A stretch of DNA of 64,000 nt. It comes from Lysobacterales bacterium (lineage in GTDB: Bacteria; Pseudomonadota; Gammaproteobacteria; Xanthomonadales; Xanthomonadaceae). Position 1 is the stretch's first letter, and every line of letters begins with the position of its first letter. Location: contig JBKCVA010000021.1 in the NCBI GenBank assembly GCA_046318115.1, positions 114 to 64,113 of the forward strand, written 5' to 3'. Positions 29,553-43,867 of the stretch are shown here, one piece after another. A model generated the notes under the pieces. The model was not told where the DNA came from. It saw only the letters and a list, made by a program, of their open reading frames with translations, and made no database searches. A program made the position numbers and the translations under genes.

Positions 29553-30887
29553 TCAGGCGGAGGCGACGCGCGAGCGTCGATCCGCCTCGGCGGCCTCCAG
29601 GGCGGCGAAGGCCGCCGCGATCCGCTGGCAATCCGCAGTGCTGACCCGCGGGGCCAGCGCCTCCACCAATTCCGCTTCCGAAGACTGACGCAGCCGCTGC
29701 AGGGCCTGGCCGGCGTCCTTGGGCGAAGCATGGCCCTCGCTCTGCAGCAGCAACTCGCCGTCGGCCGCAAGCAGCTTGAAGTAGAACTGCCCGTCCGCCT
29801 CGCGGTATTGCTTCACCTGCGGCAGCGCTTCGCGCTCGCTCTTCGTCGCAGATGCATTCGCGGCCACACCGGCGAAGCGGCGCAGACCGACCGCCTCGCG
29901 CAAGTCGGCCAGCAGCGGCGCGGCGATCGCGCGCGCGCGCGCGGCGCCGGCCTGCAGGATGTCCTCCAGCCGCTGAGGGTCCGCCATGTAGGCCTGATAG
30001 CGCTCGCGCATGGGTGCCACATCGCGCTCGATGCGCTCGACCAGACGCTGCTTGGCCTCGCCCCAGCCCAGCCCCCCGCGCAGGTCGGCACGGAAGTCCT
30101 CGGCCTCATCGGCGCGTGCAAAGGCGTCGAAGATCAGGGCCAGTGCATTGGCCTCGGGATCCTTGGGCTCACCGGGCAGTCGCGAGTCGGTGACCACCCG
30201 GGCCACCGCGTCCTTGAGGGCTTTGGCGCCGCCTTCGAAGAGCGGAATGGTGTTGTCGTAGCTCTTCGACATCTTGCGGCCATCGAGCCCGGGCAGGGTC
30301 GCCACCGACTCCTCGATCACCGCCTCTGGCAGGGTGAAGAAGCTGCGCCCTTGTCCGAACAGATGGTTGAACCGCGCGCCGATGTCGCGGGCCATCTCGA
30401 TGTGCTGGACCTGGTCGCGGCCCACCGGCACTTTGTGCGCGTTGAACATCAGGATGTCGGCGGCCATCAGCACGGGGTAGCTGAACAGGCCCATCGTGAC
30501 GCCGGCATCGGCATCCTCGCCGGCCGCCTCGTTGGCATCGGTCGCGGCTTTGTAGGCATGCGCCCGATTCATCATCCCCTTCGCGGTGACGCAGGTCAGC
30601 AACCAGGTCAGCTCGGGAATCTCTGGGATGTCCGACTGCCTGTAGAAGTGCACGCGCTCCGGGTCCAGCCCTGCCGCCAGCCAGGTCGCGGCGATCTGCA
30701 TGCGCGAGCTCTGGATGCGTGCCGGCTCGTCGCACTTGATCAGGGCGTGGTAGTCGGCCAGAAAGAAAAAGGCATCGACGTTGGGGTCGGCGCTGGCGGC
30801 GATCGCCGGACGGATCGCACCGACGTAGTTGCCGAGGTGCGGGGTGCCGGTGGTGGTGATGCCAGTGAGAACGCGGATGCGGGACAT
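29553..30887 (-). CDS. trpS: Tryptophan--tRNA ligase with C-terminal YegP/DUF1508-like extension
   Basis: [36 protein letters not shown]; tail [25 protein letters not shown]. Confidence 0.96.
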
Positions 30888-31171: not shown

Positions 31172-32116
31172 TCAACGCGCCTCGCGCAGTGGATCGCGCA
31201 TCAGAGTGGACTTGCCGAACAGGCTCTCCACCAGGTCCACCGCCAGACGCGCCGTGCGGTTGCGCTCGTCAAACGCCGGATTCAGCTCGACGATGTCGAG
31301 CGAGGCCATGCAACCGGTATCGGCGATCATCTCCATCACCAGCTGCGCCTCACGATAATTCGGCCCACCCTCGACCGTGGTGCCCACCCCCGGCGCGATG
31401 CCCGGATCGAGGAAATCGACGTCGAAACTGACGTGCAGGTGGGTGTCGTCATCGACGCCTTCCAGAGCCTCCTCGATGGCGCGCTTCATGCCGACCTCGT
31501 CGATATAGCGCATGTCGTAGATGTCGAGTCCCGCTTCATGCACCAGCCGGCGCTCGCCCTCGTCGACCGAGCGGATGCCGATCTGCTTGACCTGGTCCGG
31601 GGTGATCGCCGGGATGCTGCCCCCAAGATGGGTCAGCGCGCGCGGTCCCATTCCGCACAGGCAGGCCACCGGCATGCCGTGGACATTGCCGCTTGGCGTG
31701 AGCTCGGAGGTGTTGAAGTCGGCGTGCGCATCCAGCCACAGGATGCGCAGCTTCCTGCCCTGGGCACGCACATGCTTGGCGACTGCGGTGATCGAGCCGA
31801 CCGCGAGGCAGTGGTCACCGCCAAGCATGATCGGCATGCGCCCGGCCTTGAGTTCGGCAGCGACGGCATGCATCACCGCCGTGTTCCATTCGACCACTTG
31901 CTCAAGATGCCGATAGCCCTCGTGCGGCGGCTGCCAGGGGTTGAAGGGACCGCGCAGGTTGCCGCGGTCGTGCACTTCGAGACCACGTGCGGCCAGCGCC
32001 TCGCCAAGACCGGCGACTCGCAGGGCTTCAGGCCCCATCGAGGCACCGCGATGGCCGGCGCCTATGTCGGTGGGTACGCCAATCAGACTGACCGGCGGGA
32101 AACGGTTCGAGCTCAT
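31172..32116 (-). CDS. rocF: Arginase
   Basis: GVPTDIGAG, GGDHCLAVGS, WLDAHADFNT, GNVHGMP, SFDVDFLDP, ELNP. Confidence 0.96.
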   Translation of the reverse strand: MSSNRFPPVSLIGVPTDIGAGHRGASMGPEALRVAGLGEALAARGLEVHDRGNLRGPFNPWQPPHEGYRHLEQVVEWNTAVMHAVAAELKAGRMPIMLGGDHCLAVGSITAVAKHVRAQGRKLRILWLDAHADFNTSELTPSGNVHGMPVACLCGMGPRALTHLGGSIPAITPDQVKQIGIRSVDEGERRLVHEAGLDIYDMRYIDEVGMKRAIEEALEGVDDDTHLHVSFDVDFLDPGIAPGVGTTVEGGPNYREAQLVMEMIADTGCMASLDIVELNPAFDERNRTARLAVDLVESLFGKSTLMRDPLREAR

Positions 32117-32493
32117 GGGTCTTCCTGTTCTTCGGCGGCACGGGCGGCGGCGGCGATGGCCTTGTCGATGAGCACCAGCAGCTCCAGCGTCGGCGTCAGA
32201 AGCTCTGCGCACAGGGCCTGCACCGGGCGACGCGCCTCGGCAGGCGACTTGATCCAGGCGATCCACTGCCGCTCGATGGCACGGGCCTTGTCGCTCACCT
32301 CGGGAAATCCGTAGGCGCCGGCGGAGCCCGCCATCTTGTGCAGCATGCCGCGCAATTCGGTGACGTCGGACTCGGCGGCTTCATTGCTCGGCGCTTCGCG
32401 GATCGAAGCCATGTAGCGCCTGAGCTTCTGCCGCTTGTCCTTGAGGGCCAGTCGATAGAGGGCCAGCAGGGAATCGAAACCGTCGATGCTCAC
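32113..32493 (-). CDS. Stand-alone Hpt (histidine phosphotransfer) domain protein
   Basis: LHKMAGSAGAYGFPEVSDKARAIE motif; stop overlaps the rocF start (ATGA). Confidence 0.8.
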   Translation of the reverse strand: MSIDGFDSLLALYRLALKDKRQKLRRYMASIREAPSNEAAESDVTELRGMLHKMAGSAGAYGFPEVSDKARAIERQWIAWIKSPAEARRPVQALCAELLTPTLELLVLIDKAIAAAARAAEEQEDP

Positions 32494-32541: not shown

Positions 32542-32617
32542 TGGTGCCGGCAGTCCGAATCGAACGGACGACCTACCGCTTACAAGGCGGTTGCTCTACC
32601 AGCTGAGCTATGCCGGC
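32542..32617 (-). tRNA. tRNA-Thr(UGU)
   Basis: GCCGGCATAGCTCAGCTGGTAGAGCA-ACCGC-CTTGTAA-GCGGT-AGGTC-GTCCG-TTCGATT-CGGAC-TGCCGGCA-CCA cloverleaf, 76 nt, encoded CCA. Confidence 0.98.
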
Positions 32618-32709
32618 ACGGGGAGCGGGATTGTAGCGTCTTGCGCGGTGGATTCGGGATCGTGGGGGCCAAGCGATGCCGAATCCAGAGCGGGCGCCCG
32701 CCCCGAACC

Positions 32710-33369
32710 TCAGGCTTCACAGTCGATGCGCGCGGAATCGACCCCTGCATAGCCGCCCAACTGGGCGCGCCAGTCGAAGCGTGGATCGGCGGCGATGTCG
32801 ACCCAGTACTGCGGAATCTCCTCTGTGCGCTCGCCAAGCTCGGCGCCAAAGCCCATCGCACGCACGTCGGCCTGGCGCTGGCGGGCGTTCGCAAGCTCGC
32901 GGAACAGTCCCAGCGAGATGGTGTTCTGTCGATCACCCGCGGTGACCACGTAGTAGTCGCGCAGCCCTTGGGCGGCGAGTTCGCGCGCGGTGGCGAGTGC
33001 GGCGTCTCGGGTCGGCTGCGCCGGCATGTAGACCCAATAGCCTCGGCGCGCCAGGGCGCGGGTCTCGCGGAACTGGATGCGCTGCACCACCGGAGTCAGC
33101 GCGCCGACCGCGCGACGCAGATCGGCCTGGGTCAGGAACGGGCCAATGCGCTCGCAGACCGCATCGGGGCTGGGCGCGATCGGTTGTGGCGCCTCCGCCA
33201 GCTCGCCGACCGCGCCGCGCGCCTCGAGCTCGGTGAGCAATTCGAGTCCCGGCACGGCGGGCTCGGTGGGTGCGAACCGACGCGGCTCGTGCTCCGGACG
33301 CAGGAACCACCAGGCGCCCACGCCAACGTTCATGAGCAGCAGCAGCAGCACGAGCACGCGGGGCAGCAT
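32710..33369 (-). CDS. SPOR-domain protein
   Basis: N-terminal anchor LLLLLMNVG; GYWVYMP..NTISLGLFRELANA; conserved position downstream of coaX. Confidence 0.85.
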   Translation of the reverse strand: MLPRVLVLLLLLMNVGVGAWWFLRPEHEPRRFAPTEPAVPGLELLTELEARGAVGELAEAPQPIAPSPDAVCERIGPFLTQADLRRAVGALTPVVQRIQFRETRALARRGYWVYMPAQPTRDAALATARELAAQGLRDYYVVTAGDRQNTISLGLFRELANARQRQADVRAMGFGAELGERTEEIPQYWVDIAADPRFDWRAQLGGYAGVDSARIDCEA

Positions 33370-33448
33370 CGGGGTCCGGAGATGGATCAGGCGGTAAACG
33401 GGCGCGCAGGATAGCAGGGTGATCCCGCCCCGCCGGGGCGGGGATCGC

Positions 33449-34246
33449 TCAATCATTCACGGCGGCCTGCAGCAGGCCCTGCAGCACCAGCCAGGCTTCG
33501 ACACGCACCGGACACTCCAGCAGGGGCGCAATCCCTGCCGCATCTCCCCCCGCCAACACCACGAGGGGCGCTTCGCCGGCTTCGCGTTCAAGCCGTCGCC
33601 GAGCGCGCTCGATGAGTCCCGCTGCCGCCTGCCAGGGTGCCATCGCGACTGCAGGCGCGGTGTCGTCCGCCCAGAAGGCCTCGCGCACTGGCATGGCGCC
33701 CGGCATCCGCAGATGCGGCGCTCTGGCCAGCAGGGACTCGTGCATCGTCGTGATGCCACCCAGGATCAGCCCCCCCAGGTGGCGGCAGTCGCGGTCAATC
33801 GCATCGATCGTCAGGGCGGTTCCGGCGCCAACGACCAGCAGTGGAGGCGCGGCAATCGCCAGCGCTCCGCGCAGGCTGAGCCAGCGATCGGTGCCGAGAT
33901 GCTCGGGGCGCGGATACGCACAGCGCAAAACTGCCCCTCGCGCGGTGGGGGCCTCTGCCGCGGTGCGCGCACGAAGCAGGCCGGGGCGCCGCACCCGCAC
34001 GGAGGCGGCGACACAGTGCTGAATCGCATCGACCATCGCCTCCGCCGCGACGGCCACAAGGTGAACACTGTGGAGCTCGGGCAGCCCGCGCAGCGCCTGC
34101 TCGAGAGCGGGCAGGAAGTCCGGGCCGGAATGGGCAAGCGCTGCCACCTCGCCGAGTCGCCACTGCGGGTGCTCCGCAGCGGGCGGCAGGGCCAGCGCCC
34201 ACTTGAGGCGGGTGTTGCCCAGATCGAGCAGCAGGTGTGGCTTCAT
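33449..34246 (-). CDS. coaX: Type III pantothenate kinase
   Basis: LLLDLGNTRLKW, LGTDRWL, VGAGTALTIDAI, GGLILGG, AGGDA. Confidence 0.93.
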   Translation of the reverse strand: MKPHLLLDLGNTRLKWALALPPAAEHPQWRLGEVAALAHSGPDFLPALEQALRGLPELHSVHLVAVAAEAMVDAIQHCVAASVRVRRPGLLRARTAAEAPTARGAVLRCAYPRPEHLGTDRWLSLRGALAIAAPPLLVVGAGTALTIDAIDRDCRHLGGLILGGITTMHESLLARAPHLRMPGAMPVREAFWADDTAPAVAMAPWQAAAGLIERARRRLEREAGEAPLVVLAGGDAAGIAPLLECPVRVEAWLVLQGLLQAAVND

Positions 34247-35028
34247 AGCGGCCTCAGGCTGGCTTCGCCGCTGTGCCAGACGCGCTCGCCATCGGCATGC
34301 TCGATGCGCAGTCCGCCATCTTCGGCGAGCCCCAGTGCGGTGCCAGGCCAGCGCCGCTCGCCCGAGACCATTTGTACCGCCCGTCCGCGCAACACGTCGA
34401 GACGCTCCCAGTCAGGCAGCAGGTCGGCCAAGCCCCGCGCCTGCATCTGCCGCAGGCGGGTGCGCAGAGCCCGCACCAGGACCGCCACCAGTTCCGCCCG
34501 ATCGGGCTTCAGCCCCAGCGTGGCGAGGTCGATCCACTCGACATCGGCCTCGAAGTCGCGCGGAAGGTCGAGGTTGAGCCCCAGGCCGACCACAAGAAAG
34601 ACGCCTTCGCCGCGCCCGCCGACCTCGATCAGCAAGCCACCCAGCTTGCGCTCGCGTGCCCACAGATCGTTCGGCCACTTGAGGCCCACTTCGACGGCGC
34701 CGAGCCCTCGCAGTCCTTCCGCAACGGCCAGACCAGCGATCAGGCTGGCGCCGGCCGCGGTCGCGATGCCGCCCGGCCAGGGCAGCGCCATCGAAAGGCA
34801 CAGGCTGCCACCGGGGCGCGACTGCCAGCGCCGACCGAGACGCCCGCGACCCGCCGTCTGCCGCTCGGCCACGCGAACCGTGCCCTCGGGCGGTGGCGTG
34901 CCTGCAGCCAGCAGGTCGGAATTGGTCGACCCGGTTGCGGCAACCCATTCGAGCAGCGGCGGTTCCGGGTCAGCCCCCACCAGCGCACGCAACGTGCGCT
35001 CGGCCAGCACGACAGTCGAATCGGTCAC
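34243..35028 (-). CDS. birA: Biotin--acetyl-CoA-carboxylase ligase lacking an N-terminal HTH; GTG start inferred
   Basis: TGSTN, AERQTAGRGRLGRRW, LKWPNDL, KLGGLLIE, VGLGLN, C-terminal SH3-like SGEASLR. Confidence 0.92.
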   Translation of the reverse strand: MTDSTVVLAERTLRALVGADPEPPLLEWVAATGSTNSDLLAAGTPPPEGTVRVAERQTAGRGRLGRRWQSRPGGSLCLSMALPWPGGIATAAGASLIAGLAVAEGLRGLGAVEVGLKWPNDLWARERKLGGLLIEVGGRGEGVFLVVGLGLNLDLPRDFEADVEWIDLATLGLKPDRAELVAVLVRALRTRLRQMQARGLADLLPDWERLDVLRGRAVQMVSGERRWPGTALGLAEDGGLRIEHADGERVWHSGEASLRPL

Positions 35029-35039
35029 CTGTGCAGGCC

Positions 35040-35663
35040 TCAACCTGCCCGGCGGTGGAACAGGCGCGCCCGCTCGAAGCGATGCTCGGTGCCGCTCAGC
35101 AGCCTCTGCACGTTGCTGCGGTGGGTGAACAGCATGAAGCCGGCAGCGGCCAGAGCGAAGGCGAGCTGGCCCGGCGCAATCCAGAGCGCCAGCGGGACCA
35201 GCGCGGCGGCAGCGAGGATGGTCGAAAGCCCGACATACCCCGTGAGCACGAGGCACAACACCCACACTGCGAACACCGGGCCGACGCTGAGCGGCCAGAC
35301 CACGCAGAGCCCGCCCACCAGGGTGCCCGCGCCCTTGCCGCCGCGGAAGCCGAAGAACAGCGGCCAGGTGTGGCCGACGGCCGCCGCCAGCGTGCAGGCG
35401 CCAGCCAAGGCCGTGACCGTAAAGGGCACTTCGGACGTCCACAGCCAAAACCCCAGGGCCGCGGCAAGCGCGCCCTTGCCGATATCGATCAGCACCACCG
35501 CCAGGGCAAAGCGCCAGCCGCGCGTCCGGAACGCGTTGGTGCCGCCAGCGTTGCCGCTTCCGCTCTGGCGGATATCGACTCCGATCGCACGACCGATCAG
35601 CAGGCTGCCGGAAAGCGAACCCAGGAGGTAGGACAGCAGGAGAGCGATCAGAGTCTGCAGCAT
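35040..35663 (-). CDS. plsY: Acyl-phosphate:glycerol-3-phosphate acyltransferase
   Basis: YLLGSL, DIRQSGSGNAGGTNAFR, DIGKG, GHTWP.FFGFRGGKG, HRSNVQRL. Confidence 0.96.
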   Translation of the reverse strand: MLQTLIALLLSYLLGSLSGSLLIGRAIGVDIRQSGSGNAGGTNAFRTRGWRFALAVVLIDIGKGALAAALGFWLWTSEVPFTVTALAGACTLAAAVGHTWPLFFGFRGGKGAGTLVGGLCVVWPLSVGPVFAVWVLCLVLTGYVGLSTILAAAALVPLALWIAPGQLAFALAAAGFMLFTHRSNVQRLLSGTEHRFERARLFHRRAG

Positions 35664-35738
35664 GGTCCTAGTGTGTGGGTTCGGGTAGGCGCCAAGGAAG
35701 CACCGGGCCGCGCGCGGCGGCCCCGGGCATGAGGCACA

Positions 35739-37574
35739 TCAGGCCTGCGGGAACGGGCCAAGGTCCAACAGACCGACGACCAGAGCGCCCGTCCCCGCAT
35801 GCGCGCCCACCGCGGGCCCCACCTCGACCACGCCGAGACAGTCGACCTGCAGTGACTCGCAAAGACGCTGCGCCAAGCGCTGCGCATCGCCCTCGCAGTC
35901 GACATGGCCGACCAGAAGCCGCCAGCGACGCTTGGGATCCAGACGTTTCAGCAGATGCCGCGCAAAACGCTCCGGCGCGGCCTTGGGGCCTCCGGCGAGA
36001 GCACCCGCCACGGCGAGTCGCCCACTGGGCTTGGCGCGGGCCACTGGCGTCAGGCCAAGCGCCGCCACCAGCCATCCGGCCCACGCCGGAAGTCGCCCCC
36101 CTCGCACGGCAAATCTAACGTCGCGAGTGATCGCCCAAGTCTGCACCCGCGGGCGAAGGGCTTCGACTTCGGCCGCGACCTCGGCCGCAGTCAGCCCACG
36201 CGCGGCAGCTTCGGCGCCAGCAATCGCCAGCAGCGCCTGGCCGCAGCTCGCATGGCCGGAGTCGACCACTCGGATGCGTTCTGCGGCGACGCGCGCCGCT
36301 GCCGTCTCACCCGCCTGCAGCGTTCCCGACAGCGCCCTTGCGATGCCCACGTAAACGAGCTCGCGATGGTGCGACAGGCGTGTTTCGAACTGCCGGCGGA
36401 AGTCGCCCGGCGGCGGCTGCGAAGTCTTGGGCGCCACCGCGCTACTCTTCAGCCGGCGATGGAACTCGGCGGCACTCATCGATACCTTGTCGAGGAATTC
36501 CTCATCGCCAAAGGACACCCGCACCGGCACGGCCGACAGCCCGAGGCGCTGCGCGAGCTCCGCGGGATAGTCGGCGCCCGAATCGGTCACCACGCCCACG
36601 GCTTGCGCGAGGCTGGCCTCGCGCTGCTGGGCAAGCATGTCCTCGGCCTTGTGCGCACTCACCTTGCCGAAGCGCCCCGCCAGCTCGAACAGCTGGGCTG
36701 GCGCGCCGACGTGGGCATGGATGCGTACGCGCTGGCGGCCACCGGCAATCACTACCGAATCCGCGCCCGCCGCACTCAGGGCGGCGCGCAAGACGTCGGC
36801 ATCCAAGGACTCCGCGCTCAGCAGGCACTCGGTGCACCAGCGGTGTGCCGGGTCGACCTGATCGTGCAGATCTGCTCCAACGAAGGGGATGTCGTCCAGA
36901 TGCTCGATCCGGGCAGCGGCCCGAAGCCGTCCGGTGCGCAGGTAATCCGCGATGCCTTCCAACAGATCGACGAACCCCTGGGCCCCCGCATCGACCACCC
37001 CGGCCTGGCGCAGCACAGCCAGTTGGCGCGGGGTGTCGGCGAGCGCGGTTCGCGCGGACTCGAGCGCCCGCTCGAAACGCTCCCGCAGATCGCGTGCGCC
37101 ATCGGCGCGGGCACGCGCCAGGCCATCGGCGAACGCGCGGATCACGCTGAGGATGGTTCCTTCGCGGGGCTCGGCCAGGGCCTTGCGCGCGGCATCGGCA
37201 CCCGCGGCGGCGGCGGCGGCCAGCTCATCGGGAGGCAGCACCTCGGCATCGGCGACGCGCTCGGACACCCCCGACAGAAACTGGGCGAGGATCGCGCCGG
37301 AGTTGCCACGCGCGCCATCCACCGCATCGTCGGCGACCTGACGCAGCAGCGGGCCCAGGGCCGAGCAGCGGCGGCTGAGGCTGCCGCTGAGCACGCTGTT
37401 CAGGGTAAACGCGAGGTTGCTGCCGGTATCGCCGTCCGGCACCGGAAACACGTTGATGCGATCGAGCAGTTCGCGGCGCTCGATCACGCGACGCATGCCC
37501 GCGATCAAGGCGCGCCGCATCTGCGCGGCGGTGACGGGCGCTTCCAGGGCGCGGGGACTCAAGACGGCAACCAT
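35739..37574 (-). CDS. DAK2 (FakA-like)-DegV (FakB-like) fusion protein
   Basis: INVFPVPDGDTGSNL, GARGNSGAILAQF, EGTILSV, VVDAGAQGF, HIHAH-like RIHAH; DegV part VVTDSGAD, TSQPPPG, SGT, GAHAGTG. Confidence 0.9.
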   Translation of the reverse strand: MVAVLSPRALEAPVTAAQMRRALIAGMRRVIERRELLDRINVFPVPDGDTGSNLAFTLNSVLSGSLSRRCSALGPLLRQVADDAVDGARGNSGAILAQFLSGVSERVADAEVLPPDELAAAAAAGADAARKALAEPREGTILSVIRAFADGLARARADGARDLRERFERALESARTALADTPRQLAVLRQAGVVDAGAQGFVDLLEGIADYLRTGRLRAAARIEHLDDIPFVGADLHDQVDPAHRWCTECLLSAESLDADVLRAALSAAGADSVVIAGGRQRVRIHAHVGAPAQLFELAGRFGKVSAHKAEDMLAQQREASLAQAVGVVTDSGADYPAELAQRLGLSAVPVRVSFGDEEFLDKVSMSAAEFHRRLKSSAVAPKTSQPPPGDFRRQFETRLSHHRELVYVGIARALSGTLQAGETAAARVAAERIRVVDSGHASCGQALLAIAGAEAAARGLTAAEVAAEVEALRPRVQTWAITRDVRFAVRGGRLPAWAGWLVAALGLTPVARAKPSGRLAVAGALAGGPKAAPERFARHLLKRLDPKRRWRLLVGHVDCEGDAQRLAQRLCESLQVDCLGVVEVGPAVGAHAGTGALVVGLLDLGPFPQA

Positions 37575-37799
37575 CCCACGAGGATGCCAGAGCGCCCGTT
37601 CAGGTCACGCTGCGCTGCGACAGTCGGCGAGAAAGCGCCAAAGCGTTGACATTTCCTCACTTTGTCTGAACGCCCACACGCTACACTCGGGTGCTGTTCT
37701 GCCTGCGCTCCGCACGAGAGTTCTGCGTTCCGGAGGTCGGAACCCGTGCAACGCTCGCGGCGGAAGCCGCCTCGACAGCCCCTGCCCTAAGGAATGGTC

Positions 37800-38126
37800 A
37801 TGTCCCAGATCCGCACGACGTTGAGCGCTCTGCTGCTGTGCTTGTCCGTGGCGGCGCCCGCGGCGGCGGTCGAGGTCCTGCCCATGGAGGCCGAGCCAGC
37901 CGACTGCGGCGCTGAGGCGATCTCCGCGGTCGAATCGGAGGCTGACGCCGCGGGAGACACGGCTGCGCTGATCGAAGATGCCGAACTGCCCGCAGGCCTG
38001 CAGGCGGTCGGCGGCAACGCCGCGCCCGCGCGCGCGCCGGCGCCGGGCGGCGGCGACGCAACAACGGCTCCGCCGGCCAAGCCGAACTCGCGCTGGAACG
38101 CCTTTTTGCCGGGCATGGTGCGCTGA
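37800..38126 (+). CDS. Small secreted hypothetical protein ending RWNAFLPGMVR (start 37800 or 37794)
   Basis: Signal peptide, low-complexity middle, conserved-looking C-terminal motif; AAGGA RBS fits ATG 37800. Confidence 0.7.
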   Translation: MSQIRTTLSALLLCLSVAAPAAAVEVLPMEAEPADCGAEAISAVESEADAAGDTAALIEDAELPAGLQAVGGNAAPARAPAPGGGDATTAPPAKPNSRWNAFLPGMVR

Positions 38127-38162
38127 GCCCGCGCCCGCGGACTCCGTTGTGCTGGCGTCGCC

Positions 38163-38951
38163 GTGATTTCCCGCTGGTGGAGCTCCCGTAGGCGCTCACC
38201 TGTACAGCTTCCTCAGTCCACATTCCAAGCGGTGCGTTCGCGCTGTGACTGGGTCGCGGCCCTCGATAGCGACGCGCAAGAACGACTCCGTACGCTCGCG
38301 GGAGGCTTCCTGCAGCGCAAGGGGATCACGCCGGTGCGGGGTCTTGAACTGACAGAAGATGACCGCGCACTGATCGCCAGCCTGTGTTGCCTTCCGGTTC
38401 TGAATCTTGGCGGGCATTGGCTGGGCGGCTGGCAGGAGGTCGTGATCTACCCGGGCGCGTTCCGCGTGCGCCGCAGCGCTTTGGATGAGCCGACCGGCGT
38501 GCTTCACGAATGGGATGAGGAACTGGCGGGCGAAGCCTGGAGCGAGGGGCCGCTCATCCTGTCGTGGGAAGACGTGCTTCTCGACCTCGAAGAGCCCGCC
38601 GAGGGCTGCAATGTGGTCGCTCATGAGATCGCCCACAAACTTGATCTGCGCGACGGCGTGCTGGATGGCACGCCCCCACTGCCTTCGGCACGACAACGCG
38701 CGTGGGCCAGGGATTTCCAAGCCGCCTTTGACGCGCTGTGCGCGGAGGTGGACGCCGAACGCGAGACACGGATCGACCCCTACGCCGCGACCGCTCCGGA
38801 GGAGTTCTTCGCAGTGGTCAGCGAGTACCACTTCTCGGCGCCGGAAGTGCTGCGCGAAGCCCTGCCGGCCGTGGCCGAACATCTTGCGGATTTCTATGGC
38901 CCTTCGCCGGCCGAGCTGGCATCCGGGACGCTCGCTTTCCAGCCGCGGTGA
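38163..38951 (+). CDS. M90-family zinc-dependent peptidase (MtfA/YeeI-like)
   Basis: EVVIYPGAF, GEAW..GPLILSW, NVVAHEIAHKLD, IDPYAATAPEEFFAV. Confidence 0.92.
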   Translation: MISRWWSSRRRSPVQLPQSTFQAVRSRCDWVAALDSDAQERLRTLAGGFLQRKGITPVRGLELTEDDRALIASLCCLPVLNLGGHWLGGWQEVVIYPGAFRVRRSALDEPTGVLHEWDEELAGEAWSEGPLILSWEDVLLDLEEPAEGCNVVAHEIAHKLDLRDGVLDGTPPLPSARQRAWARDFQAAFDALCAEVDAERETRIDPYAATAPEEFFAVVSEYHFSAPEVLREALPAVAEHLADFYGPSPAELASGTLAFQPR

Positions 38952-41948: not shown

Positions 41949-42851
41949 TCAGAAGATTTCGGCGACGCAGCAGCGCAGGCTGCCGCCTGCCTTTTCAATC
42001 TCGTCGAGTTCGATACTGCGCAGCGCGAAGCCCGCATGCTCCAGCTGCAGGCGCTGGTCCGGCCGCAGGCTGTCGGCAGCGCGCGCGCTCATCCATACAG
42101 AGTCTTCAGCGAGACTGATGCAATTGGCGGCGAATGCATTCTTCTGCGCGGGCTCGAGCCACAGCACCTGCGGCGCATACACCGCGGCAACCGCTTCCGC
42201 CGCGGCGGGATCGGCAAAGCCTTCCGCACAGATCAGCGCCATGCGCCCAGCCAGCACCGACAGCACGACGTTGGTGTGGTACTCGCCCGCGGCCAGATCC
42301 GCTCGCAGCAGCGCGCGCAGGTCGAACGCTTCGACCATCGCCTGTGCTGCCGCGCGCGTGCAGCGCTCGCCCAGGCCGGCGTAGCCGATGCCGCGGGCGC
42401 GGTCGATCACCAATGAACCGGTCAGCTCACCGACCTCGCCATCGCGCAAGTCAAGCTCGGCGTAGCCGAGGAGGCCGGTAAAGAAGCCACGGATGTCCGG
42501 CCGCTCGGCCTCGCGTTGGCGAACTGGATGGCGCATCCGGCCCAGGATCAGGCGCCCAGGCGCTGTGGCGAACACATTGTTTGGAAACATGCCGTCCGGC
42601 GCATCCGGATCGCCAGCGAAGCAGAGCACCGGCAACTCGCTGGCCAGAGCCCGCTGCAGGGCCTGATGCTGGGCGCGCGCGCGGTCGCTGCTGAAGACCT
42701 GCTTGAGGTCCATGTAGGCATTGTCGCTGGCCGACTGCGCAGCGAGCTCGACGCCTGCGGGCGAGACCAGGAAGGCCGCCCGCGCGCAAGCCGGCCGATC
42801 CGCGGCAAGCGCCCGCGCAGCCATGACATCGAAGCCCTCGAACGCACTCAT
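41949..42851 (-). CDS. Arginine deiminase-related amidinotransferase-fold protein
   Basis: PDGMFPNNVF, MRHPVRQRE, ELTGSLVIDR, YHTNVVL, EKAGGSLRCCVAEIF. Confidence 0.9.
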   Translation of the reverse strand: MSAFEGFDVMAARALAADRPACARAAFLVSPAGVELAAQSASDNAYMDLKQVFSSDRARAQHQALQRALASELPVLCFAGDPDAPDGMFPNNVFATAPGRLILGRMRHPVRQREAERPDIRGFFTGLLGYAELDLRDGEVGELTGSLVIDRARGIGYAGLGERCTRAAAQAMVEAFDLRALLRADLAAGEYHTNVVLSVLAGRMALICAEGFADPAAAEAVAAVYAPQVLWLEPAQKNAFAANCISLAEDSVWMSARAADSLRPDQRLQLEHAGFALRSIELDEIEKAGGSLRCCVAEIF

Positions 42852-43867
42852 GCCGCGCGCGCCTGCTGCTGTTCGACCGCAGCCAGCGCTCGCTCGATCA
42901 ACTCCCAGCCGGCCTCGGGCCGATGCGCCTCGGTGCTGAGGATCTGGCGGAACCGACGGCCGCCGGGCTGGCCCGCGAACAGGCCGAGGATGTGGCGGCT
43001 GAAGTGCTTGAGCATCACTCCACGCGCCTGCAGCCCGCGCACATTCGGCTCCAGCGAACGCAGCAGCTGCTCGCGCGACTGCAGCGGCGCATCGGGCGCG
43101 AACAGCGCGCGATCCAGGCGATGCAGCAGGTAGGGATCGTGGTAGGCGGCGCGGCCGATCATCACGCCGTCGACCTGAGCGAGCTGCTCCCGCACCGCGG
43201 CCTCGCTGGCGATACCGCCGTTGATGGCGATCTGCAGCTCGGGCCGCTCGCGCTTGAGTCGATGCACCAACGGGTAGTTCAGCGGCGGAACCTCCCGGTT
43301 CTCCTTGGGCGACAGCCCCTGCAGCCAGGCTTTGCGGGCATGCACGATGAAACTGCGGCAGCCGGCGGCGGCGAGGGTCCCGACGAAGCAGAACAGGCTG
43401 TCGGCCTCGTCCTGGTCGTCGACGCCGATCCGGCACTTGATGGTCACCGGCACCGTCACCGCAGCCTGCATTGCGGCGAAGCACTCGGCCACACGCTGCG
43501 GCTCCAGCATCAGGCAGGCGCCGAAACGGCCGGCCTGCACGCGGTCCGAGGGGCAGCCGACATTGAGGTTGATCTCGCCATAGCCCCAGTCAGCGCCGAT
43601 GCGTGCGGCTTGCGCCAGCAGCTCGGGATCGCTGCCACCCAGCTGCAGGGCCAGCGGATGCTCGACCGCATCGAAGCCCAGCAGACGCTCGCGATCACCG
43701 TGAAGCACCGCCTGCGCATGCACCATTTCGGTGTACAGCCGCGCGTTCGGCGCCAGCGCGCGGTGGAACACGCGGCAGTGGCGGTCGGTCCAGTCCATCA
43801 TGGGCGCGACGGACAAGCGGAAGCTGGCAGGGAAATCGGCGGGCACGCGGGCAGTGCTCAAGAACAC
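42848..43867 (-). CDS. dusA: tRNA dihydrouridine(20/20a) synthase
   Basis: SVAPMMDWTDRHCR, ALQLGGSDP, NLNVGCPSDRVQAG, VHARKAWLQGLSPKENR, INGGI, MIGRAAY. Confidence 0.97.
   Translation of the reverse strand: MFLSTARVPADFPASFRLSVAPMMDWTDRHCRVFHRALAPNARLYTEMVHAQAVLHGDRERLLGFDAVEHPLALQLGGSDPELLAQAARIGADWGYGEINLNVGCPSDRVQAGRFGACLMLEPQRVAECFAAMQAAVTVPVTIKCRIGVDDQDEADSLFCFVGTLAAAGCRSFIVHARKAWLQGLSPKENREVPPLNYPLVHRLKRERPELQIAINGGIASEAAVREQLAQVDGVMIGRAAYHDPYLLHRLDRALFAPDAPLQSREQLLRSLEPNVRGLQARGVMLKHFSRHILGLFAGQPGGRRFRQILSTEAHRPEAGWELIERALAAVEQQQARAA

Follow-up and report, generated by a model that had tools for sequence, protein, structure and literature searches.

A putative single-chain fatty acid kinase adjoins plsY in a plsX-less Gram-negative bacterium

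Fatty acid kinase has been presented as a device of Gram-positive bacteria (Firmicutes), Gram-negative bacteria using FadD or acyl-acyl carrier protein (acyl-ACP) synthetases (PMC10146087, PMC10848957). The Firmicute enzyme consists of two proteins, FakA and FakB. FakB is docked by FakA's C-terminal domain, FakA_C (PMC9136124), and in the model proposed for Streptococcus suis FakA_C has the added role of a DhaK-like half-site, paired with Dak2 of the partner chain (PMC10848957). The Xanthomonadales are stated to have only the acyltransferases PlsB and PlsC (PMC11633183, PMC13400652). Here we analyse a 64,000-nucleotide stretch of DNA from a Xanthomonadales genome (GenBank assembly GCA_046318115.1, contig JBKCVA010000021.1, positions 114 to 64,113), hereafter the window. 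One of its genes, directly upstream of plsY, encodes a FakA-like kinase region and a complete DegV domain within a single chain. We consider, with a probability of roughly 0.8, that the product of this gene is a working single-chain fatty acid kinase which would supply PlsY and thereby provide a salvage route beside PlsB. A preliminary description of the window had proposed such an enzyme, and the proposal fits the computational tests, namely the domains, the functional residues, the fold, the co-occurrence and adjacency with plsY, and contigs from RNA libraries. The kinase gene, its domains and plsY are located as follows in window coordinates.

35739-37574, reverse strand: candidate gene for a single-chain fatty acid kinase (Dak2, FakA middle domain and DegV), an open reading frame (ORF) translated into 611 aa.
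36948-37445, reverse strand: Dak2/DhaL ATP-Mg domain, residues 44-209, with D47, D49, ARGNSG at 88-93, and D195 (PF02734).
36618-36842, reverse strand: FakA-like middle domain (Zn, dimerisation), residues 245-319, with C247, C250, H286 and H288 (PF21645).
35769-36599, reverse strand: DegV (FakB-type) fatty-acid-binding domain, residues 326-602, with T384, S416, R494 and H592 (PF02645, TIGR00762).
35664-35738, reverse strand: spacer between the kinase gene and plsY, exactly 75 bp.
35040-35663, reverse strand: plsY, acyl-phosphate:glycerol-3-phosphate acyltransferase, 207 aa (TIGR00023, PF02660).

The kinase frame is uninterrupted over its 611 codons and holds three Pfam domains: Dak2 (E value 2.5e-35), FakA-like_M (E 2.2e-12) and DegV (E 8.3e-55, 186.5 bits for a cut-off of 27). 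The NCBIfam DegV domain model TIGR00762 is matched from end to end with 207.4 bits (cut-off 99.7), and only positions 3-302 of the 530 positions of the YloV profile TIGR03599 are matched. Thus the protein corresponds to a FakA that is devoid of its own C-terminal domain and carries a true DegV domain instead. No FakA_C domain was detected with the Pfam model PF13684, and no sequence match to FakA_C was obtained among PDB entries. Unlike the free DegV or FakB proteins of about 280 aa, the DegV domain is part of the longer chain. Nor is the protein a dihydroxyacetone kinase by its profiles: Pfam finds no Dak1 substrate domain in it, and both family models are missed (TIGR02361, 23.8 bits for a cut-off of 575; TIGR02365 for DhaL, 23.7 bits for 138.3). 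The joining of a kinase region to a complete DegV domain in one ORF, as put forward in the preliminary description, is therefore borne out by the three domains, and all the motifs it quoted are present: NVFPVPDGDTG (residues 41-51), ARGNSG (88-93), the DAG motif within VVDAG (193-197), HRWC (244-247) and HAH (286-288). The same holds for the 75 bp said to separate the gene from plsY. The product of plsY scores 149.1 bits with TIGR00023, above the equivalog cut-off of 137.2, and matches PF02660 with an E value of 6e-42. The genome encodes a single DegV and a single Dak2 domain, both within the kinase gene. Homologues of the protein are labelled in the source databases just as 'DegV family protein' or 'DAK2 domain-containing protein'.

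Residues 15-323 align to residues 5-325 of S. suis FakA (PDB 7W7H) with an E value of 1.9e-33, and also to the crystallised N-terminal domain of Staphylococcus aureus FakA (FakA_N). D47 and D49 align to the Mg-ATP aspartates D38/D40 of S. aureus and D37/D39 of S. suis. The S. aureus D38A/D40A double mutant does not complement a fakA deletion (PMC9136124); in S. suis, mutation of D37 strongly lowers activity and D39A remains active (PMC10848957). In the middle domain, C247 and the His-x-His pair H286 and H288 align to C240, H282 and H284 of S. aureus, whose mutants lose activity by about 100-fold or more (PMC9136124), and to C244, H289 and H291 of S. suis, which are ligands of the Zn site in the crystal structure (PMC10848957). 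The C-terminal half finds its best sequence match in Thermus thermophilus DegV (2DT8, E 1e-26, 30% identity) and was also aligned with S. aureus FakB1. T384, S416, R494 and H592 correspond to FakB1 T62, S95, R173 and H270, as counted along the alignment, and to T61, S93, R170 and H264 of S. suis FakB2. The latter four residues bind the carboxylate of the fatty acid, and the R170A mutation abolishes activity (PMC10848957). The carboxylate-site arginine is missing from FakA_C (PMC10848957). Since it is present in the window protein as R494, the DegV domain is FakB-like rather than FakA_C-like.

Conservation was assessed on an alignment of 72 fused homologues that are 38-87% identical to the window protein. 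D47, D49, R89-G93, D195, H286, T384-P387, S416-T418, R494 and H592 are invariant in all 72; C247, C250 and H288 are present in 71. The second cysteine of the middle domain, C250, belongs to a CTEC motif (residues 247-250, 36826-36834), where the aligned S. suis FakA has a single cysteine (YCTE). The fourth Zn ligand of S. suis FakA, H226, matches H237 of the window protein, which is kept in just 40 of the 72 homologues. Judging from these alignments, the Zn site of the fused family may be of the Cys2His2 type. No sign of decay is seen in the window gene. In one relative (G134), a second copy of the fusion with in-frame stop codons lies beside plsY fragments (G134:C18:30903-33011), an intact pair being present in that genome as well. 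One match to this copy contains two TGA codons and an overlapping match three TGA and one TAG; it looks like a decaying duplicate of the fusion-plsY module.

An AlphaFold2 model was built from the homologue alignment (mean predicted local distance difference test, pLDDT, 92.3; predicted template modelling score, pTM, 0.90). When the whole chain was searched with Foldseek, both chains of S. suis FakA ranked at the top (E 1e-26) with a large root-mean-square deviation (rmsd); the domain arrangement therefore differs from that of S. suis FakA. Taken separately, the DegV part matches fatty-acid-loaded DegV or FakB structures with template modelling scores (TMt) of 0.82-0.90, and the Dak2 part matches S. 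aureus FakA_N with a TMt of 0.92 and an rmsd of 1.4 Å. Prediction of a complex between residues 1-325 and 326-611, each with its own alignment, gave a score of 0.01, which speaks neither for nor against such a complex.

The preliminary description had suggested surveying the linkage to plsY and the presence of plsX and plsB, and among the lines of evidence it is this genomic context that weighs most. We searched 151 genomes of the order for the fusion, plsY, plsX and plsB in turn, and compared coordinates by hand to judge adjacency. Because the sampled genomes share kinship, the counts are descriptive and do not amount to a statistical test. The full-length fusion was found in 99 genomes, plsY in 100, both in 98, plsX in 57 and plsB in 150. 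Weak matches to the fusion in three genomes (G104, G120 and G070, E about 1e-4) were held to be spurious and were excluded. The only genome with the fusion and no plsY is 69% complete. The two genomes with plsY and no fusion belong to one small family, the other sampled member of which has plsX. In 94 of the 99 fusion genomes, spread over ten families, plsY lies directly downstream on the same strand. As for the five exceptions, the two genes are on different contigs in three genomes and plsY is 4.4 kb away in another; the fifth genome is incomplete. At least 52 sampled genomes combine the fusion and plsY with no detectable plsX; acyl-phosphate has no recognisable source there other than the fusion. 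The counts for individual families are listed below.

Family f3 (fusion/plsY/plsX): 17/17/0
Family f11: 17/17/0
Family f4: 4/4/0
Family f2: 5/5/0 of 8 genomes
Family f12: 4/4/0 of 17 genomes
Family f1, to which the window belongs: 3/3/0 of 18 genomes
Family f6: 17/17/15
Family f7: 15/15/16 of 17 genomes
Family f9: 0/0/17

Family f9 (for example G009, G021 and G031) has plsX in 17 of 17 genomes, and neither the fusion nor plsY was found there, the latter with the Pfam model. Acyl-phosphate made by PlsX would have no known consumer in this family, unless a divergent PlsY escaped the Pfam model.

The window comes from a draft genome of 4.36 Mb in 185 contigs that is 96% complete. plsX was not found in it by Pfam or TIGRFAM models, even at E <= 1. 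The string yceD-rpmF-fabH-fabD-fabG-fabF is unbroken on one contig, and the usual slot of plsX between rpmF and fabH is empty. Since this string is contiguous, the absence of plsX is not an assembly gap. The interval between rpmF and fabH measures 348 bp (G000:C92, L119 4799-5145) and contains no recognisable gene. Its only ORF has 87 codons and no Pfam match; the interval could hold a plsX remnant or be a plain spacer. Since the genome is without plsX, the fusion is its only recognisable source of acyl-phosphate, and probably the only source available to PlsY, which strengthens the case made in the preliminary description. The genome also contains a full-length plsB (971 bits) and FadD-like (acyl-CoA ligase-like) and FadB-like genes.

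Beyond the order survey, the fused architecture recurs in hundreds of homologues forming over 100 protein clusters. The architecture itself is already known, and it is widespread. Named carriers include Arenimonas, Rehaibacterium, Novilysobacter, Pseudoxanthomonas, Lysobacter enzymogenes, L. brunescens, Rhodanobacter, Dyella, Dokdonella, Tahibacter, Wenzhouxiangella, Lentisalinibacter and Steroidobacteraceae; a Marinimicrobia single-cell genome carries a fusion of 38% identity with plsY nearby downstream. When the class was sampled at one or two genomes for each family, a full-length match was obtained in about 16 of 300. The position of plsY could be judged at 73 named loci with enough flanking sequence. 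It lies within 400 nt downstream at 54 of these and within 1.7 kb at six more. Thus the architecture of the locus, recurring in hundreds of homologues with conserved synteny, is far beyond chance.

Metagenomes that contain the locus sequence are numerous and come from freshwater, lakes, wetlands and drinking water; six RNA runs contain it as well. Of the RNA runs, four, belonging to two studies, were mapped on positions 32600-38300, X19 and X20 being left out for their small word share. Contigs of 99-100% identity from both studies cover the kinase ORF, and contigs from one sample (X14 and X16) bridge the kinase-plsY and plsY-birA junctions. One of them (34975-36346) runs from the birA start over the whole of plsY and the spacer into the 3' part of the kinase gene; a second spans 35386-36481. 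In both studies the contigs break off at 37502-37574, which is at the kinase start codon or slightly inside it. No contig covers the 219-bp intergenic region upstream, and cover resumes at about 37710-37763 with the divergent gene. A pattern this uneven is more in keeping with RNA than with contaminating DNA, and it gives a weak hint that the kinase mRNA is leaderless or has a very short 5' leader.

By homology with the Firmicute enzymes, the following mechanism may be proposed. The C-terminal DegV domain would hold a free fatty acid with its carboxylate at T384, S416, R494 and H592. The N-terminal Dak2 domain would bind ATP-Mg through D47, D49 and D195, and the gamma-phosphate would be transferred to the carboxylate. 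The Zn-carrying domain in the middle (C247, C250, H286, H288) would organise the enzyme and probably dimerises it as in FakA. The DegV domain stands exactly where Firmicute FakA has its degenerate, FakB-docking FakA_C, so that the acid carrier would be permanently tethered rather than recruited. As a ligand-competent DegV domain is joined by a linker of about five residues at this position, no docking step would be needed. The acyl-phosphate would then be handed to the PlsY encoded 75 bp downstream, and glycerol-3-phosphate would be acylated at sn-1. PlsB takes acyl-ACP and acyl-coenzyme A (acyl-CoA), and the Fak-PlsY pair would constitute a second entry to phosphatidic acid dedicated to free fatty acids. 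Because no exchange between acyl-phosphate and acyl-ACP would take place without PlsX, the route would be limited to such acids. Since PlsB is universal in the order, this second entry would be dispensable, which would account for the loss of both genes together in whole genera.

Several points weigh against the view that the protein is a fatty acid kinase feeding PlsY. First, the whole-protein profiles of the characterised enzymes are missed: the FakA equivalog NF038248 (FakA_VfrB) scores 158.6 for a cut-off of 975, the FakB1 equivalog NF038249 86.5 bits for 350, and YloV 250 bits for 396. On this account the window protein is not an orthologue of characterised FakA, YloV or FakB1; it would work like FakA and FakB while being an orthologue of neither. 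Second, 13 of the 73 named loci (about 18%) have no plsY within 4 kb downstream. Third, a search of the 96%-complete draft genome revealed no outer-membrane fatty acid channel of the FadL type, and the genome encodes FadD-like ligases and PlsB; taking up outside fatty acids by way of the fusion is therefore not needed. As FadL was not found, the fatty acids may stem from the lipid turnover of the cell itself, and we regard recycling of internally released fatty acids as just as likely as uptake from outside. Fourth, the RNA-library contigs cannot prove a single transcript, and libraries of this kind can contain DNA. Finally, our literature search returned no biochemical or genetic data on any fused member. 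Nor did it return any paper dealing with a naturally fused FakA-FakB or with a fatty acid kinase in the Xanthomonadales, the search falling short of most subscription journals.

Some of these points bear on the nature of the ligand. The protein could be a Fak-type kinase whose DegV domain binds another carboxylic or lipid ligand, such as a hydroxy or branched fatty acid, a signal acid of the diffusible signal factor (DSF) type or a monoacylglycerol, with a product that is not a substrate of PlsY and a neighbourhood that is a general lipid or cofactor operon. DegV proteins do bind varied lipids and just some have been shown to be FakB, the FakB1 equivalog score is far under its cut-off, and the named loci devoid of a downstream plsY would be in keeping with a different product. 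However, neither the carboxylate-binding tetrad nor the kinase residues vary, plsY is present in 98 of 99 fusion genomes and the fusion in 98 of 100 plsY genomes, and plsY adjoins the fusion in 94 of 99 genomes, drawn from ten families. Moreover, PlsY would otherwise have no source of substrate in the plsX-less genomes. We therefore regard a different ligand as unlikely.

It seems slightly less probable still that the fusion serves mainly in regulation, as a sensor or buffer of free fatty acids, without bulk biosynthesis and with a nearly idle PlsY. With PlsB present in 150 of 151 genomes, bulk lipid synthesis can do without the route, both genes have disappeared from several well-known genera of the order, and one report links the S. 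aureus fatty acid kinase to lipid homeostasis and to SaeRS (PMC5539427). Yet a pure sensor would need neither intact catalytic residues nor strict pairing with an intact PlsY. The fusion and plsY have been retained as a pair or lost as a pair, a pattern that speaks for a common pathway.

A relic without activity, or an annotation or assembly artefact (for instance two genes fused through a sequencing error), might be suspected in a 185-contig draft but is refuted for practical purposes by the invariant functional residues and by the recurrence of the same open frame, some 600 aa long, in about 100 of the order's genomes, isolates included, and in over 100 protein clusters; in addition, independent DNA and RNA runs contain the same sequence, and the second copy in G134 illustrates how a decayed gene would appear.

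The favoured reading thus remains that of a functional single-chain fatty acid kinase supplying PlsY. A wider one may be built upon it, which we put forward as possible but doubtful. The single chain would represent fatty acid kinase in its complete and possibly ancestral form, in which the EDD-fold domain paired with Dak2 is the acid-binding site, as in DhaK-DhaL. Phosphotransfer would then require no hand-over between proteins, the Dak2-paired domain itself holding the acid. Firmicute FakA_C would be a degenerate remnant of this domain, to which free FakB paralogues came to be recruited at a later stage. For Xanthomonadales devoid of plsX, the enzyme would be the sole source of acyl-phosphate; Fak and PlsY would then lead from free fatty acid to lysophosphatidate as a self-contained Gram-negative route, and the PlsB/PlsC-only statement of the reviews would be overturned.

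The other elements of the locus lie downstream of plsY and upstream of the kinase gene.

34243-35043, reverse strand: birA, biotin protein ligase (Pfam BPL_LplA_LipB and BPL_C).
33449-34246, reverse strand: coaX, type III pantothenate kinase (Pfam Pan_kinase, E 1e-26).
32710-33456, reverse strand: gene of a SPOR-domain protein, the last conserved member of the gene string (Pfam SPOR, synteny).
37575-37793, no strand assigned: divergent intergenic region of 219 bp on the 5' side of the kinase gene, presumed promoter site.

The co-orientation and clustering with birA and coaX reported in the preliminary description were recovered: both genes are on the reverse strand downstream of plsY with stops and starts that overlap or almost do, and the gene order is conserved in relatives. 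The start of birA may be TTG at 35043, which overlaps the plsY stop, or GTG at 35028. With the former, the stop/start overlaps of plsY/birA, birA/coaX and coaX/SPOR amount to 4, 4 and 8 nt. The full plsY-birA-coaX-SPOR string is found at 38 of the 60 named loci with plsY nearby. That the kinase is functionally tied to the supply of coenzyme A or biotin is only a guess.

Across the 219-bp intergenic region lie a divergent small ORF with a hydrophobic N-terminus, encoding a putative secreted protein, and a gene for an M90 peptidase. No sigma-70-like promoter was seen in a scan of the locus, the divergent intergenic region included, and no terminator-like site lies within the 75-bp spacer between the kinase gene and plsY. 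Four terminator-like sites were detected at the locus, all of them intragenic, which is no excess over the 2.3 +/- 1.4 of shuffled sequences and carries no information. The window is G+C-rich (62-72%). Elsewhere in it, the ORF at 29553-30887 (reverse strand) encodes a class I tRNA synthetase of the tryptophanyl/tyrosyl type with a C-terminal DUF1508 domain. An ORF of 511 aa at 41949-43484 (reverse strand) carries a dimethylarginine dimethylaminohydrolase (DDAH) domain of the eukaryotic type in its C-terminal half, the first 250 residues or so being devoid of a recognised domain; an arginase-family gene is found close to it, at 31172-32266.

The survey bears on what has been written about phospholipid synthesis in the order. 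The statement that Xanthomonadales have only PlsB and PlsC needs qualifying, about two thirds of the sampled genomes having plsY together with the single-chain Fak. It holds just for the lineages that lost both genes, and these are presumably its basis. Cultured carriers include Lysobacter, Rhodanobacter, Dyella, Arenimonas and Pseudoxanthomonas. Carriers devoid of plsX offer a simple system for the salvage of free fatty acids in a Gram-negative envelope, with one kinase, one acceptor enzyme and no acyl-ACP exchange. The fusion also bears on the dispute as to whether FakA_C is a docking site alone or also a fatty acid site (PMC9136124 versus PMC10848957). Synthetic lipid pathways now use FakA plus FakB (PMC13400652), and a generator of acyl-phosphate made of one protein could simplify them. 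The present analysis adds the cleanly plsX-less context, the figures of co-occurrence and adjacency over the order, the conflict with the review statements, the check at residue level and the cover by RNA libraries.

The closest described system is the FakA and FakB pair of Firmicutes, known from S. aureus and from S. suis (PDB 7W7H; PMC9136124, PMC10848957). The window protein shares with it the DGD aspartates of Dak2, the Cys/His/His Zn domain in the middle, and the DegV fold with its Thr/Ser/Arg/His carboxylate site; the product, acyl-phosphate, and its consumer, PlsY, are presumed to be the same. However, it is one chain and not two, FakA_C being replaced by a ligand-competent DegV domain. 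It contains a single acid-binding domain, whereas Firmicutes have several exchangeable FakB paralogues, and its Zn domain has a second conserved cysteine (CTEC). Its host is a Gram-negative bacterium that has PlsB and lacks PlsX, the enzyme by which acyl-phosphate is linked to acyl-ACP in Firmicutes.

The stand-alone DegV proteins of T. thermophilus (2DT8) and Thermotoga maritima (TM841, 1MGP) are the best matches to residues 326-602 in both sequence and fold, with TMt values of 0.89-0.90. They are free proteins of about 280 aa, whereas the DegV domain of the window protein is covalently joined to its kinase. Finally, the dihydroxyacetone kinases (Escherichia coli DhaK/DhaL and Citrobacter freundii DhaK) likewise combine an EDD-fold substrate module with a DhaL/Dak2 nucleotide module, and the C. 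freundii enzyme does so in a single chain, like the window protein (PMC10848957). Compared with these kinases, the window protein has the reverse domain order, no Dak1, a weak DhaL score and, in its DegV domain, a pocket of the fatty acid type.

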